From a virus (lineage: Duplodnaviria > Heunggongvirae > Uroviricota > Caudoviricetes): a DNA stretch of 8,170 nucleotides. The notes beneath the pieces were generated by a model. The model was not told where the DNA came from. It did no database searches and worked only from the letters and a program-made list of their open reading frames with translations. Below, piece after piece: positions 3,866 to 8,170 of this stretch. Each line of letters begins with the position of its first letter. Positions within the stretch are counted from its first letter, which is position 1. Where the stretch lies: the IMG/VR virus record IMGVR_UViG_2778261088_000001. The stretch is one strand, 5' to 3'. A program made the position numbers and the translations under genes.

Positions 3866-3998
3866 TCTTTGGGACTCCTGGCTGATTAAGTATGTCGATA
3901 AGGCGTTTCCATCCGTCACGTAATTTACGGGTGATTCGTTCAAGTAAAGATTCGGAAGGGCAGCCAGCAACAGGCCACCCTGCAATGGCATATTGCAT
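3834..3998 (-). CDS. cIII: CIII (FtsH inhibitor that stabilises CII), 54 aa
   Basis: Within the 78-codon ORF 3834..4070, ATG at 3998-3996 preceded by AAGGAG gives 54 aa ([54 protein letters not shown]), matching lambda CIII. Confidence 0.88.
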   Translation of the reverse strand: MQYAIAGWPVAGCPSESLLERITRKLRDGWKRLIDILNQPGVPKNGSNTYGYPD

Positions 3999-4070
3999 GG
4001 TGTGCTCCTTATTTATACATAACGAAAAACGCCTCGAGTGAAGCGTTATTGGTATGCGGTAAAACCGCAC

Positions 4071-4621: not shown

Positions 4622-4823
4622 TCAGGCAGCCTTGTTGTTCTGTTTGTCAAGTTCTCTGGCAATCATTGCCGTCGTTCGTATTGCCCATTTATCGACATAT
4701 TTCCCATCTTCCATTACAGGAAACATTTCTTCCAGGCTTAACCATGCATTCCGATTGCAGCTTGCATCCATTGCATCGTTTGAATTGTCCACACCATTGA
4801 TTTGTATCAATAGTCGTAGTCAT
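4622..4823 (-). pseudogene. ral: ral (restriction alleviation) disrupted by a +1 frameshift
   Basis: ATG at 4823-4821 opens a frame reading MTTTIDTNQWCGQFKRCNGCKLQSECMVKPG... that stops after 44 codons; the -1 frame (track ORF 4622..4810) carries the Ral C-terminus EEMFPVMEDGKYVDKWAIRTTAMIARELDKQNNKAA. The two join into a 66-aa Ral if one C is removed from TTCTTCCAGG near 4730-4734. Confidence 0.6.
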
Positions 4824-4945: not shown

Positions 4946-5080
4946 CCACATCAGGCTCGGTGGTTCTCGTGTAAAGGGCATGCCAAGCAAGTCGATGCTG
5001 CATATGCAAAAGAATGCGCGCTGGAAGGTATGGCGAGAACACAGGTTATCTGGCTGAAAGAGGGGGTTATTAAGGCGTGA
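4946..5080 (+). pseudogene. 3' fragment of a ybcO-like (DLP12 nin-region) gene, lacking its start
   Basis: Frame opens after TAA at 4943-4945 with no start codon and reads [44 protein letters not shown]; the last ~30 residues match my recollection of the YbcO C-terminus. Stop at 5078-5080 overlaps the rusA GTG (GTGA). Confidence 0.45.
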
Positions 5081-5661: not shown

Positions 5662-6045
5662 ATGCGTGATATTCAGATGGTTCTTGAGCGTTGGGGTGCG
5701 TGGGCGGCTAATAATCATGAAGATGTGACCTGGTCGTCCATTGCCGCCGGTTTTAAGGGATTAATTCCTTCAAAAGTAAAATCTCGCCCGCAATGTTGTG
5801 ACGATGACGCGATGATCATTTGCGGGTGCATGGCCCGTCTGAAAAAGAACAACAGCGATTTACACGATTTATTAGTAGATTATTATGTATGTGGTATGAC
5901 ATTCATGTCACTGGCAAGTAAGCATTGCTGCTCGGATGGTTATATCGGGAAAAGGTTACAGAAGGCTGAGGGCATAATTGAAGGGATGTTAATGGCATTA
6001 GATATCCGGTTAGATATGGATATCGTTGCTAATAATTCTAATTGA
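5662..6045 (+). CDS. quuD: Q-family late-gene antiterminator (QuuD-like), 127 aa
   Basis: Track ORF begins at TTG 5647; I place the start at ATG 5662, preceded by GGAG with 7-nt spacing ([24 protein letters not shown]...). Contains a Cys cluster ([12 protein letters not shown]). Matches DLP12 QuuD from memory. Confidence 0.88.
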
Positions 6046-6182
6046 TATGCAATTGTTTACTAAAAGTTATTAAAAATGGGGCGTGGAAACGCCCCCAAAA
6101 TAAAGGGTAATATATAACAGAAGGTTTATATAGTAAGAAGCAAGGTAGTGCTTCTAAAGGAAGTGGCTTGAGGGCTCCACTT

Positions 6183-6222
6183 ATATGTTGCGGAGGCAAA
6201 GCCTCCCGCAACATATCTTTTT
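6183..6222 (+). terminator. Strong intrinsic terminator on the plus strand downstream of the Q gene (candidate tR'-like element)
   Basis: 15-bp stem ATATGTTGCGGAGGC (6183-6197) / GCCTCCCGCAACATAT (6201-6216, one bulged C) with AAA loop, followed by CTTTTT (6217-6222); ends 11 nt before the porin stop codon on the other strand. Confidence 0.55.
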
Positions 6223-6233
6223 CGTAAGTCAGA

Positions 6234-7316
6234 TTAGAACTGATAAACCAGACCTACAGCGACGATGTCGTCGGTATCAATACCAGCTGTTTTGGTAAAC
6301 TTACTATCGTCAATTAAGTTGATTTTGTAATCAACAAAAGTGGACATGTTTTTATTAAAGTAGTAAGTAGCACCGACATCGACATACTTGACTAAGTCTC
6401 GGTCACCATGAACACCAAGGTCTTTACCTTTTGACTGAAGGTAAGCAACAGATGGGCGCAGACCGAAGTCAAACTGATATTGTGCTACTGCTTCAAAGTT
6501 TTGTGCTTTGTTTGCAATATGGTTATTACCAAAAACGGTCATATTCTGAGTTTCAGAATATGTGGTAGCCAGATAGATATTGTTCGCATCATATTTCAGG
6601 CCTGCAGCCCATACTTCCGCATTTTTGCCGGAGGCATTGAATTTGCTCTTACCATAGGCGACCTGACCGTCAGTGCGATCTGATTTAGCATAGGTTGCAC
6701 CCACGCCGAATCCTTCATACTCATAAGTAGTGGAGAAACCGAAACCATCACCATTGGCTTCAGTTACGTCAGTGCGGTCATTTTTACCCTGATACTGAGC
6801 AGCAAAGTTCAGGCCATCGACCAGACCAAAGAAGTCGTTGTTACGATAAGTTGCAACACCAGTAGTGCGACCAGTCATGAACACATCTGTTTGGGTCCAG
6901 GTATCACCACCGAATTCTGGCAGAACGTCAGTCCACGCACCGATGTCGTATGCTACACCGTAGTTACGGCCGTAATCGATTGAGCCGTAATCACCAAATT
7001 TCAGGCCTGCAAATGCAAGACGGGTTTTGTCTTTGGAAGAACCTTGAGATTCAGCACGGTTGCCTTTGAATTCATATTCCCACTGACCGAAACCAGTCAG
7101 TTGATCGTTGATTTGGGTTTCACCTTTGAAGCCAAGACGGGCATAAGTAGTATCACCATCATCTGCATCATTAGAGGAGAAGTAGTGCTTGGCATTAACT
7201 TTCCCGTATAGATCCAGCTTGTTACTGTCTTTATTATAAATTTCAGCTGCCTGAGCAGACATCGCCATCAGTACTGATGCAGCTACAGCAGAAATTGCCA
7301 CTGTTAATTTTTTCAT
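6234..7316 (-). CDS. nmpC: Outer-membrane general porin precursor (NmpC/Lc/OmpC family), 360 aa, apparently intact
   Basis: Track ORF is 380 codons from ATG 7376; I call ATG 7316, which gives a classic signal peptide ([23 protein letters not shown] / AEIYNKD). The protein ends in the porin C-terminal Phe (...VGLVYQF). No insertion element interrupts it. Confidence 0.92.
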
Positions 7317-7390
7317 TGTACGCCCTTTTTTTGAACTATTATTAAAAAATGATGTCACTGCGCGATAAATATTCATCTAATCAATGTGAT

Positions 7391-7410
7391 TATTTCAAGA
7401 TGTAAGTTTT
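7391..7410 (-). promoter_or_regulatory. OmpR-box-like motif upstream of the porin gene (tentative)
   Basis: Minus strand reads AAAACTTACATCTTGAAATA, resembling the ompC C1-type OmpR site TTTACATTTTGAAACATCTA as I recall it (TTACAT..TTGAAA core), about 75-95 bp upstream of the porin ATG. No -10/-35 pair defined. Confidence 0.25.
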
Positions 7411-7742
7411 AGTTTCTCATTTAATTTGTGAAGTAGATCTCTATTTTTATCTGAACCTTTTCTATCTAATCCTATTCATGGCTCTTGTCTGAACAAAAAT
7501 AAATCTATTAGCTAATTTATATTAATGGCACTTATTTATAAGTGCTCTATAATTCTTTAGCTTAATTTAAACAAACTAAAAATAACATCGGAAATTATTG
7601 GCTGGTTATTTGTTGAAGTTTTCTTATGTATTTGTGGTGGTATTTTGAACACTCGGTGGCATTCTCACAAATATCATTTAGTAGTTTACGTACGTAAAAA
7701 ATTGGTTATGCTGTTAAGAGTGGTTACTTCGTCACACAGCTT

Positions 7743-7777
7743 AAACCCGCCGTCGAGCGGGTTTTTCCATTTTTTGA
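7743..7777 (+). terminator. Intrinsic terminator on the plus strand, 130 bp upstream of the holin gene
   Basis: Stem AAACCCGC (7743-7750) / GCGGGTTT (7757-7764) with loop CGTCGA, followed by TTCCATTTTTTG. Confidence 0.55.
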
Positions 7778-7904
7778 GTCTCGATATTAGCTGATAACCC
7801 AATACCTGAGTTATTCACTGACTCCGAATCTGTTACGTTTCTGCCTTTATTGCGATACGTAGTATCCCCTTAATTTACACCCGCTTTGTCTGCGAGGTGG
7901 GGTT

Positions 7905-8120
7905 ATGAAATCCATGGATAAGTTAACAACGGGTGTCGCCTATGGTACCTCAGCAGGTAGTGCCGGGTACTGGTTTTTACAGTTGCTCGATAAAGTCACG
8001 CCCTCACAGTGGGCGGCAATAGGTGTGCTGGGAAGTCTAGTTCTGGGCTTTTTGACTTATCTGACAAATCTTTATTTCAAGATTAAAGAAGATAAGCGTA
8101 AGGCTGCACGGGGAGAGTAA
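7905..8120 (+). CDS. essD: Class II holin/pinholin, phage-21 S21-like (EssD-like), 71 aa with a dual-start motif
   Basis: 71-codon ORF; [31 protein letters not shown]... matches S21/EssD from memory; Met1-Lys2-Ser-Met4 dual start; RBS GAGGTGG upstream; charged C-terminal tail. Confidence 0.9.
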
Positions 8121-8124
8121 TTCA

Positions 8125-8170
8125 ATGACTCAAAACTATGAACTGATTGTGAAAGGGATCCGCAATTTTG
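8125..8170 (+). CDS. 5' end of the gene following the holin (presumed lysis gene; identity not determinable)
   Basis: ATG at 8125 preceded by GGGAGAG with 7-nt spacing; frame open to the window end (MTQNYELIVKGIRNF...). Only 15 codons are present; they do not resemble the R21 or RrrD N-termini I remember. Confidence 0.3.
   Translation, partial: MTQNYELIVKGIRNF

Follow-up and report, generated by a model that had tools for sequence, protein, structure and literature searches.

An intact nmpC/lc-type porin cassette between the Q gene and the putative late promoter of a lambdoid prophage

The DNA analysed here, a stretch of 8,170 nucleotides hereafter called the window, carries, uninterrupted, the porin cassette that is classical in lambdoid prophages and goes by the names nmpC (DLP12) and lc (PA-2). 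The porin gene is real, probably expressed, ordinary and previously described. As a whole, the locus is very probably an autonomous, CRP-aided and OmpR-dampened porin unit that is situated between Q and pR′ and has an IpeX-like 3′ UTR. Earlier work has documented the gene itself, how widespread it is in E. coli, that UPEC express it and that CRP and OmpR control it, and no new biology is added. The points added here are the position of the late promoter on the holin side, the 3′ UTR structure kept in P7, and an OmpR box that is unrecognisable by sequence statistics alone. Our own comparisons provide the integrity of the gene, its family and allele identity, how well promoter, CRP box and 3′ UTR are conserved, and where the pR′ homologue lies; for the binding of OmpR and CRP and their action in K-12, for expression in UPEC and for what IpeX does, we rely on the literature.

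Porin gene, its borders and its known alleles

The cassette and its neighbours comprise the following coding features.

5662–6045, plus strand: quuD, Q-family late antiterminator of 127 aa, left border of the porin cassette
6234–7316, minus strand: porin CDS, 360 aa plus stop, NmpC/Lc family
7316–7248, minus strand: signal peptide, codons 1–23, cleavage after AQA, length taken from the PA-2 record
7905–8120, plus strand: phage-21-type holin, essD homologue, first late gene, right border

The minus-strand open reading frame covers 6234–7376 and reads 380 aa when counted from its first ATG. The MKKLTVAIS... start at 7316 yields 360 aa plus a stop codon, with the C-terminal end ...GLVYQF, and the same 1083-nt CDS is annotated by RefSeq in UTI89 and CFT073. 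The protein matched the Pfam profile Porin_1 (PF00267) over positions 1–337 of 337 (E 1.9e-151) and reached 521 bits with the NCBIfam ‘porin OmpC’ subfamily model NF007841, the cut-off of which is 484. Its scores were under the cut-offs of both the PhoE and the OmpF equivalog models of NCBIfam, and the porin is therefore an equivalog of neither. Residues 24–360 aligned end-to-end with the mature OmpC, OmpK36 and OmpF chains from the PDB, which suggests a 16-stranded, trimeric barrel; the L3 constriction motif PEFGGD and the C-terminal YQF, ending in Phe, were found in the alignment. The identity was 91.9% to K-12 NmpC and PA-2 Lc, as against 66% to OmpC and 62% to OmpF.

The initial annotation had described an intact 360-aa porin of the NmpC/Lc type that begins with a signal peptide and ends in Phe, and the reading frame, the Pfam match and the identity to NmpC and Lc bear this out. 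The copy was also held to be uninterrupted, unlike that of K-12. Indeed, an IS5B element interrupts the K-12 gene after 1040 nt, and the alignments revealed no frameshift, internal stop or insertion sequence in the CDS studied here. The description of the gene as a moron between Q and the holin likewise agrees with the coordinates given above.

On the left, the quuD product matched PF06530 over profile positions 1–118 of 118 (E 6.7e-54); it is identical to the CFT073 protein and ~81% identical to Q of 933W over residues 1–120. On the right, the holin matched PF04971 (E 7.4e-35). Both genes are annotated under these names (quuD and essD) in UTI89, CFT073 and K-12, and the order quuD–porin–holin is the same in K-12, UTI89, CFT073 and ev017. 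The prophage itself has lost its immunity and replication region, a point absent from the initial annotation. A terminator belonging to the cassette (6095–6068) was found by the scan, and the consensus scanner called no promoter for it. The arrangement fits a self-contained moron with an autonomous minus-strand transcription unit, whose promoter is predicted from homology to K-12 PnmpC.

UPEC strains CFT073 and UTI89 encode exactly this porin (WP_000737271.1, ‘porin OmpC’ / NmpC c1560; 100% identity), and so do the isolated temperate phages ev017, 2G7b, ev207 and Perceval. The PhiR-series temperate phages, which carry a 100%-identical porin too, were grouped with these four. Over the whole cassette (6046–7904), 6 differences in 1859 nt separate the window from CFT073. 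At least 80% of a 1.8-kb query was carried by 2465 of 5426 complete E. coli genomes (~45%), and 653 records matched this query at 99% or more. We also observed that the nmpC/lc porin is frequently labelled ‘OmpD’ or ‘porin OmpC’ in annotations.

Promoter, CRP box and OmpR-like motif

The ~600 bp upstream of the porin gene have a mean column identity of 95% to the PA-2 and K-12 promoters. The following features were assigned in this region.

7317–7361, minus strand: predicted 5′ UTR of 45 nt with Shine-Dalgarno AAGGG, predicted transcription start (TSS) G7361
7368–7398, minus strand: predicted weak sigma-70 core promoter, −35 TTGAAA at 7398–7393, 19-bp spacer, −10 AATATT at 7373–7368
7387–7410, minus strand: OmpR-box-like sequence, best register CTTACATCTTGAAATAATCA at 7406–7387 (−45 to −26), overlapping the −35 element
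7424–7444, minus strand: CRP box ATAGAGATCTACTTCACAAAT, centre ~−73 from the predicted TSS, class I spacing

The TSS was placed using two published K-12 data sets. In 5′ RACE of PnmpC the start was a G (PMC11677980), and in an OmpR ChIP-exo table the peak centre at nmpC is listed at a distance of 43 from the TSS (PMC5438342). Only when read as upstream does this distance fall on a G, 45 nt before the ATG, and we infer that transcription would begin at G7361. A start 131 nt before the ATG, obtained by reading +43 as downstream (the convention fitting ompF and ompC), was rejected only because the base there is A, the position falls within the CRP box and G was the start in 5′ RACE. The segment CGCAGTGAC of the 5′ UTR/TSS region is kept in P7, whose promoter, although divergent, also retains CTTGAAA and the −10 region. 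The failure of the consensus scan to call the core promoter at 7368–7398 fits an activator-dependent promoter.

The CRP box is identical to a site in the 1986 PA-2 record (J02580), the annotation of which already includes CRP boxes. With the letters AGAGA-TCTACT-TCACA, it agrees with TGTGA-N6-TCACA at 8 of 10 positions, and P7 has a perfect box, TGTGA-TTTTGA-TCACA, at the same position. Its centre corresponds to class I spacing (near −61.5, −72.5, −82.5 or −92.5), an assignment that hinges on the predicted TSS. nmpC is among the Genomic-SELEX targets of CRP (PMC3105977), and Crp is said to activate PnmpC (PMC11677980).

Small-RNA pairing with the 5′ end of the porin mRNA was also scored. The RybB seed pairs with +13 to +19 (7 bp, −13.9 kcal/mol), which was matched by 37 of 500 shuffled targets, and the MicC pairing was equalled by 54 of 500. 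The RybB pairing is consistent with the published targeting of nmpC and on its own is no evidence.

The initial annotation had pointed to AAAACTTACATCTTGAAATA as resembling an OmpR site and to GCGATAAAT as recalling the ompC regulatory region. The former is the exact reverse complement of 7391–7410, and the latter is on the plus strand at 7362–7370. From sequence alone, however, the OmpR resemblance is at chance level. The box matches ompC box C1 at 14 of 20 positions and has PWM rank 5 of ~16,300 positions in the window. The window contains 6 sites that agree with one of the seven ompF/ompC boxes at 14 or more of 20 positions, versus 6.4 ± 2.7 in dinucleotide shuffles, and 63% of shuffles of the 250-bp promoter held one or more such sites. 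No tandem boxes like F1–F3 of ompF or C1–C3 of ompC were found, the flanking 20-mers scoring only −2.0 and 2.3. An arrangement like ompF F2–F3 was considered and discarded; the upstream 20-mer has GAAAC in register but scores −2. The OmpR-like box is invariant in K-12, PA-2 and ev099, and its half-site CTTACAT is not kept in P7, where the −35 element and the CRP box are kept. As for GCGATAAAT, it does occur in OmpR box C2 of ompC, with an expectation of 0.08 per window (16 of 200 shuffles) before allowing for other noticeable 9-mers, but it lies on the strand opposite to the porin, across the predicted −10/TSS, and is most likely coincidental.

In K-12, a published ChIP-exo study nevertheless found a weak OmpR peak (P4) at nmpC, with a signal-to-noise ratio of 2.26, near the bottom of 25 peaks; it reported a 2.4-fold rise of nmpC in the ompR knockout (mode ‘Rep’) and tallied the gene as an earlier-characterised OmpR target that it confirmed (PMC5438342). 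Operators for OmpR, IHF and MprA have been described in PnmpC (PMC11677980). The equivalent of the K-12 peak is 7374–7434 in the window (58 of 61 positions identical), with the motif of the initial annotation at its centre and three SNPs that each fall outside the core box. The peak also covers, on the other strand (7401–7420), a further site with 15/20 agreement to box C3. According to this literature, OmpR control is real for the K-12 allele and consists of repression over the −35 element, not of ompC-like activation; the repression would act by occlusion of the −35. The proposed OmpR site thus holds in that the K-12 allele is bound by OmpR, although the likeness by which it was noticed is no better than chance. 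Similarly, the suggested osmoregulated, host-type control is right in naming OmpR as a regulator and wrong in its direction, which in K-12 is repression and not osmotic activation.

Two other readings of the motif were weighed. It is rather unlikely that the motif is a coincidence of AT-rich promoter DNA containing the −35 TTGAAA, and that the K-12 effects are indirect or noise. The shuffle counts, the scores of the flanking 20-mers and a signal-to-noise ratio of just 2.26 would all fit a coincidence, as would the absence of CTTACAT from P7 next to a conserved −35 and CRP box. Nevertheless, only a few bases separate the motif from the centre of the ChIP-exo peak, which also covers the C3-like match, nmpC had been characterised as an OmpR target before, and its expression rose in the knockout. 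Activation of the porin by OmpR at high osmolarity in the manner of ompC, the idea implied by the initial annotation, seems barely plausible. The match to C1 and the 9-mer shared with C2 speak for it, but a box at −45 to −26 sits on the −35 element, whereas those of ompC and ompF extend from −100 to −41, both K-12 studies (PMC5438342, PMC11677980) report repression, and GCGATAAAT has the wrong strand and position. Direct repression by OmpR, exerted over the −35, is the reading that we retain.

The 3′ UTR and the position of the late promoter

Three further features flank the porin transcription unit or lie at its end.

6068–6233, minus strand: structured porin 3′ UTR of ~165 nt, ipeX homologue, terminator stem 6095–6078, U tract 6077–6068
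6183–6222, plus strand: hairpin followed by CTTTTT, just after Q, from sequence and fold
7685–7772, plus strand: late promoter module, homologue of pR′-qut-terminator of 933W, −35 TTTACG at 7685–7690, −10 TATGCT at 7707–7712

The 3′ UTR between the stop codon and the intrinsic terminator (6233 to ~6068) is close in length to IpeX, for which 167 nt are reported. It shares ~94% identity with the 3′ UTRs of K-12 and PA-2 and has the same sequence as that of ev017, and is by this homology an IpeX homologue. Its minimum free energy was −53.6 kcal/mol (z = −6.1), and none of 200 shuffles was equally stable. In P7, the cassette of which is ~75% identical, the same hairpin series is formed with 8 pairs changed on both sides (z = −6.3). 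A search of the whole window against Rfam with E up to 1 returned the lambda cIII thermoregulator as the sole match and no RNA family in 6046–7904; since Rfam has no IpeX family, the small-RNA assignment rests on homology to K-12 and PA-2 DNA. IpeX itself is a small RNA derived from a porin 3′ UTR and is reported to lower OmpC and OmpF synthesis. The initial annotation did not mention this IpeX-homologous region. On the plus strand, the hairpin at 6183–6222, which is the first stem of the minus-strand 3′ UTR, resembles a terminator that would end transcripts coming from Q; the terminator scanner did not list it because its stem is bulged.

In blastn, positions 7682–7766 of the window aligned with 20663–20746 of 933W at 77.6% identity (E 4.6e-13). 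The module has a conserved initial transcribed region and a terminator hairpin (7743–7764) followed by a T run, and is also present in K-12 DLP12 and in PA-2. The labels pR′ and qut are themselves ‘putative’ in the 933W record. This homology places the predicted pR′ between the porin promoter and the holin, with a Q-dependent start expected near 7719, and the cassette between Q and pR′. With the pR′ homologue on the holin side, the porin cassette would be outside the late transcript. The initial annotation, which described the porin as antisense to late transcription between Q and the holin, was correct as to orientation and location, but the predicted Q-dependent late transcript does not cross the gene.

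The alternative is a late promoter right after Q, as in lambda and 933W, from which Q-modified polymerase would transcribe the porin antisense during lytic growth. Such a layout is the canonical lambdoid one, and the plus-strand hairpin with its T run at 6183–6222 could be tR′. We nevertheless consider it very unlikely. A promoter scan of the plus strand from 5900 to 6200 gave no promoter-like site, the 190 bp after Q have no homology to the post-Q sequence of 933W (5990–6260 aligned), and it is 7682–7766 that aligns with the pR′-qut-terminator of 933W, a phage with a Q of the same family as quuD. The position on the holin side is thus preferred. We also looked at phage ev066, which has a related Q and no porin; its homology ends at window position 6021, and it is uninformative on the location of pR′ because blc and ybgA replace the porin beyond that point.

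Expression, proposed model and comparison with known systems

The suggestion that this copy may be expressed is well founded by analogy. The CFT073 nmpC genes c1560 and c2348 are reportedly expressed more strongly at 37 °C at the RNA and protein levels (PMC12890032), and outer-membrane proteomics detected NmpC in 89% of UPEC isolates (PMC9609314). With a protein identical to NmpC of CFT073 and UTI89, the porin is likely to be expressed. It is decidedly less probable that the intact gene stays quiescent in its host, whether nucleoid proteins silence it or it is simply uninduced, and adds nothing to the outer membrane, like nmpC and ompN in E. coli B. A weak core promoter missed by the scanner, the very AT-rich upstream 250 bp and the named repressors IHF, OmpR and MprA (PMC11677980) would agree with quiescence. 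Against this, CFT073 has a near-identical promoter together with the identical protein and reportedly expresses nmpC more strongly at 37 °C, the protein is detected in most UPEC outer membranes, and the same promoter in K-12 is active enough for IS5 transposase transcription (PMC11677980).

We propose that the porin, if expressed as expected, is transcribed from ~G7361 by a weak sigma-70 promoter, which CRP-cAMP bound at ~−73 would assist and OmpR bound over the −35 region would dampen; IHF and MprA, reported as further repressors in K-12, may act here as well. The 360-aa precursor would lose its 23-residue signal peptide and form a 16-stranded, trimeric general porin with surface loops unlike those of K-12 NmpC and PA-2 Lc, and the mRNA would run through the 165-nt structured 3′ UTR to the intrinsic terminator, with a total length of ~1.29 kb and a 3′ end near 6070. 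Given the reported reduction of OmpC and OmpF by IpeX, a host that expresses the cassette would partly exchange its major porins for the phage-borne one. It is also possible, although we offer this only tentatively, that the promoter core, porin CDS and IpeX-like 3′ UTR travel jointly as a portable ‘porin-swap’ module. Such a module would explain the compensatory hairpins in P7, the recurrent insertion point between Q and pR′ in lambdoid phages and the intactness of the cassette after prophage decay; its survival beyond the loss of the immunity and replication region would suggest host-level selection for the module itself. A phage-borne porin alters outer-membrane permeability, antibiotic entry, phage and colicin receptors and surface antigens, and genome annotation benefits from knowing that this copy is whole and its promoter intact.

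A close counterpart is NmpC of DLP12 (qsr′) in K-12, which has the same position and orientation between quuD and essD and a promoter 95% identical to ours, including the CRP box, OmpR-like box, −35 and TSS region. In K-12 the IS5B insertion sits 58 nt from the end of the gene, whereas the gene here is whole, and the CTAA target used by IS5 in K-12 is replaced by ACCAAAA. The two proteins differ in 34 alignment columns that form 8 clusters, including two short deletions, hence 360 and not 365 aa. Lc of PA-2 (protein 2, J02580) is an intact, expressed lysogenic-conversion porin with the same signal peptide, CRP box and ipeX-like downstream sequence; its loop segments differ from those of the present porin as those of NmpC do. 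The segments specific to the present allele are precursor residues 182–187, 217–227, 263–267 and 335–347. PA-2 is a viable phage, whereas the prophage studied here lacks the immunity and replication region. The prophages of CFT073 and UTI89 and the temperate phages with the identical porin retain the cI-O-P-nin region that is missing here, and the CFT073 holin differs from ours.

The nmpC gene of P7 (P1-like, AF503408) is found in a wholly different context, between odaA and ssb. Its protein is ~81% identical, and the homology begins inside the 3′ UTR at window position 6102, spans the CDS and ends at 7378, a short way upstream of the predicted TSS. P7 keeps the CRP box, −35, TSS region and 3′ UTR hairpin series, but the OmpR-like half-site is not conserved. 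The E. coli porins OmpC, OmpF and PhoE belong to the same fold family, with 62–66% identity and full-length Porin_1 matches. Their regulation offers a contrast: ompF and ompC have three tandem OmpR boxes at −100 to −41 and are activated by OmpR, whereas the porin here has a single box over the −35 and K-12 nmpC is repressed. Finally, the 933W-type phages, which carry Shiga-toxin (stx) and other morons beside Q, share a same-family Q (~81%) and the homologous pR′-qut-terminator module. In those phages stx is downstream of pR′ and co-transcribed with the late genes, whereas the porin cassette lies upstream of the pR′ homologue, in antisense orientation, with its own predicted promoter and its own terminator.

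The porin gene and its prophage setting

The minus-strand open reading frame from 7376 to 6234 comprises 380 aa counted from the first ATG. We placed the porin start at ATG 7316, the RefSeq choice for this gene in both UTI89 and CFT073, which gives 360 aa plus stop, beginning MKKLTVAIS. The product matched the whole Pfam Porin_1 profile (1-337/337, E 1.9e-151) and passed the NCBIfam 'porin OmpC' subfamily cut-off (521 bits vs 484), whereas it did not reach the NCBIfam PhoE and OmpF equivalog cut-offs. Solved OmpC, OmpK36 and OmpF chains aligned end to end with residues 24-360, and both the L3 motif PEFGGD and the C-terminal ...VYQF were found. Aligned to its relatives, the gene was free of frameshifts, stops and insertions.

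Features of the porin gene and its flanks
Signal peptide of the porin, 23 residues (PA-2 Lc annotation)
Left of the porin: Q-family antiterminator quuD (PF06530)
Right of the porin: phage-21-type holin essD (PF04971)
6095-6078 (-): stem of the porin's intrinsic terminator, U tract to 6068 (terminator scan)

The ORF, Pfam and alignment results bear out the initial annotation, which described a complete, intact porin between Q and the holin. It also rightly had the K-12 equivalent disrupted by IS5: nmpC of MG1655 is split by IS5B. The window gene is real and intact, and is probably expressed. The IS5 target CTAA used in K-12 nmpC (TTCACTAA followed by AGC) is missing from the window allele (TTTACCAAAACAGC, 6285-6300, minus strand).

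The 3′ UTR, ~165 nt from stop codon to minus-strand terminator, shares ~94% identity with the K-12 and PA-2 sequences, and its folding far exceeded that of shuffles (z = -6.1). The ~75% identical cassette of the P1-like phage P7 has the same hairpin series, with eight pairs changed on both sides, and its 3′ UTR alone gave z = -6.3. Castillo-Keller et al. are said to have reported in 2006 that PA-2 carries the same sequence as the K-12 nmpC 3′ UTR (IpeX), and that OmpF is also affected.

The left two-thirds of the window hold a lambda-like exo-bet-gam-kil-cIII-DUF2528-ral block. At a junction at 4971-4973 (within 4960-4980), the ral side is fused directly to a DUF1364 remnant just before rusA; ~7.7 kb present in the UTI89 prophage (sieB, repressor region, O, P, ren, nin genes) are missing here. 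The split of ral (4622-4823) into two overlapping frames, 44 aa and 62 aa long, points to a frameshift. Because of this loss and the split ral, the prophage is defective; the parts still intact include the porin cassette and its promoter. The Rfam Lambda_thermo family (cIII thermoregulator) matched full-length at 3953-4011 (minus strand, 88.5 bits, E 3.9e-21).

OmpR and CRP at the porin promoter

In K-12, OmpR ChIP-exo peak P4 (576106-576166, NC_000913.2) was reported as a repressive site confirming a previously characterised target, and knocking out ompR raised nmpC from 19 to 46.5 FPKM (PMC5438342). The ompF peak served to check the coordinate system: it lies over F1-F2, at the stated -87.5. 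The nmpC peak maps to window 7374-7434 (58/61 identical), and its centre, 7404, lies on the motif (7410-7391, minus strand) previously likened to an OmpR site. The distance from peak centre to TSS is given as 43 for nmpC (PMC5438342), and 5′ RACE mapped the PnmpC TSS to a G (PMC11677980). Only when read upstream does this distance reach a G (window 7361, 45 nt ahead of the ATG); the alternative reading reaches an A inside the CRP box.

Promoter features relative to +1 = G7361
7373-7368 (-): -10, AATATT, -12 to -7
7398-7393 (-): -35, TTGAAA, -37 to -32
7406-7387 (-): OmpR-like box, CTTACATCTTGAAATAATCA, -45 to -26
7444-7424 (-): CRP box (PA-2 annotation), ATAGAGATCTACTTCACAAAT, centre ~-73, class I spacing

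In the GenBank record of phage ev017 (L004 3704-4846), the annotated porin begins at the upstream ATG and has 380 aa. This 20-residue N-terminal extension (window 7317-7376, minus strand) is probably an annotation artefact, because the upstream ATG precedes the inferred transcription start G7361.

According to a 2024 study of IS5 at nmpC (PMC11677980), Crp activates PnmpC at two operators, and OmpR, IHF and MprA repress it. The divergent P7 promoter has a perfect TGTGA-N6-TCACA as its CRP box and keeps CTTGAAA and the TSS segment CGCAGTGAC, without the CTTACAT half-site. On our reading, the porin promoter would depend on CRP, and OmpR occupying the -35 region would dampen it, which is repression and not ompC-like activation. 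OmpR control, as proposed in the initial annotation, stands in substance on the K-12 ChIP-exo peak and the ompR knockout, but its direction is repression, and the idea was right for a reason invisible from sequence alone.

Both strings quoted in support of that idea sit where they had been placed. As reference we used seven sequences that we take to be the ompF/ompC OmpR boxes (F1-F4, C1-C3); each occurs exactly in K-12 DNA, in the expected contiguous registers. A PWM built from them ranked CTTACATCTTGAAATAATCA fifth of ~16,300 window positions, and this 20-mer matches C1 at 14/20. Matches of at least 14/20 to any box showed no excess (6 observed vs 6.4 ± 2.7 expected from dinucleotide shuffles), and for the 250-bp promoter 63% of shuffles yielded at least one match of 14/20 or better. 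The 20-mers adjoining CTTACATCTTGAAATAATCA formed no tandem OmpR boxes. GCGATAAAT is found in box C2; in the window it lies on the other strand, overlying the -10/TSS, and the resemblance is best treated as chance. Sequence statistics alone therefore do not support an OmpR site. On the strand opposite the porin gene, TGTAAGTTTTAGTTTCTCAT (7401-7420, plus strand) matches C3 at 15/20, overlaps the earlier motif and lies within the K-12 ChIP-exo peak; the match cannot be told from chance.

CAGUGGC in the porin mRNA (window 7298-7304, plus strand, codons 5-7) is complementary to the RybB 5′ seed GCCACUG, and nmpC is a published RybB target. The RybB-porin mRNA pairing energy was not significant (37/500 shuffles).

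The interval between Q and the late promoter

The porin had been described as antisense to late transcription, a claim we found unsupported, as the pR′ homologue sits at 7682-7766, beyond the cassette. This stretch aligns, at 77.6% identity (E 4.6e-13), with the segment of phage 933W that bears the annotations pR′, qut and first terminator. The Q proteins are ~81% identical over residues 1-120, whereas the 190 bp after Q have nothing in common with the 933W sequence after Q.

Features of the Q-pR′ interval and late promoter
6183-6222 (+): hairpin and T run
7685-7690 (+): pR′ homologue -35, TTTACG (933W alignment)
7707-7712 (+): pR′ homologue -10, TATGCT (933W alignment)
Within 7682-7766 (+): conserved initial transcribed region (933W alignment)
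7743-7764 (+): terminator hairpin (933W alignment; found independently by terminator scan)

Because homology to the pR′ module lies at 7682-7766 and none directly follows Q, ~1.7 kb (5995-7681) are inserted between Q and its promoter relative to 933W. Judged from this arrangement, the porin cassette lies outside the Q-dependent transcript and diverges from it. The 6183-6222 hairpin probably stops unmodified transcripts leaving Q. In 933W, Q and pR′ overlap, and the cassette occupies that space in the window; in phage ev066 (Q 87.5% identical) the cargo from the same breakpoint on is blc and ybgA, with homology ending at window 6021. The Q-pR′ space looks like a recurrent cargo site.

The second 'CRP site' of the PA-2 record (CTGTGTGACGAAGTAACCACT, L003 1067-1087) corresponds to window 7720-7740 (plus strand), in the initial transcribed region of the pR′ homologue. 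The segment is conserved with 933W, whose record labels it qut; Q loading or pausing, and not CRP binding, may explain the conservation. The only sigma-70 consensus match in 5900-8170 (ATGGCA-17-TATAAT, 10/12, 7525-7553, plus strand) lies upstream of the pR′ homologue and encloses a perfect palindrome, GCACTTAT-TT-ATAAGTGC (7528-7545). K-12 and PA-2 conserve neither the palindrome nor the associated -35 element.

Relatives and expression

The 1.8 kb surrounding the porin gene are covered to at least 80% in 2465 of the 5426 complete E. coli genomes, and the match reaches 99% or more in 653 records. The porin is 100% identical in the isolated temperate phages ev017, 2G7b, ev207, Perceval and several PhiR phages, and to WP_000737271.1 of CFT073 and UTI89; CFT073 differs by six nucleotides across the whole cassette (6046-7904). 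Both CFT073 nmpC genes (c1560, c2348) were reported to be higher at 37 °C, in RNA and protein (PMC12890032), and 89% of UPEC isolates had NmpC in their outer-membrane proteome (PMC9609314). Expression of the window's allele is documented elsewhere, in CFT073 and UPEC.

The 34 columns differing from NmpC fall into eight short clusters, two small deletions among them. We infer that these are surface loops, because they coincide with segments where OmpC and OmpF show gaps or variation. The window porin is a textbook gene. K-12 NmpC (IS5 removed) and PA-2 Lc are each 91.9% identical to it, P7 NmpC ~81%, OmpC 66% and OmpF 62%.
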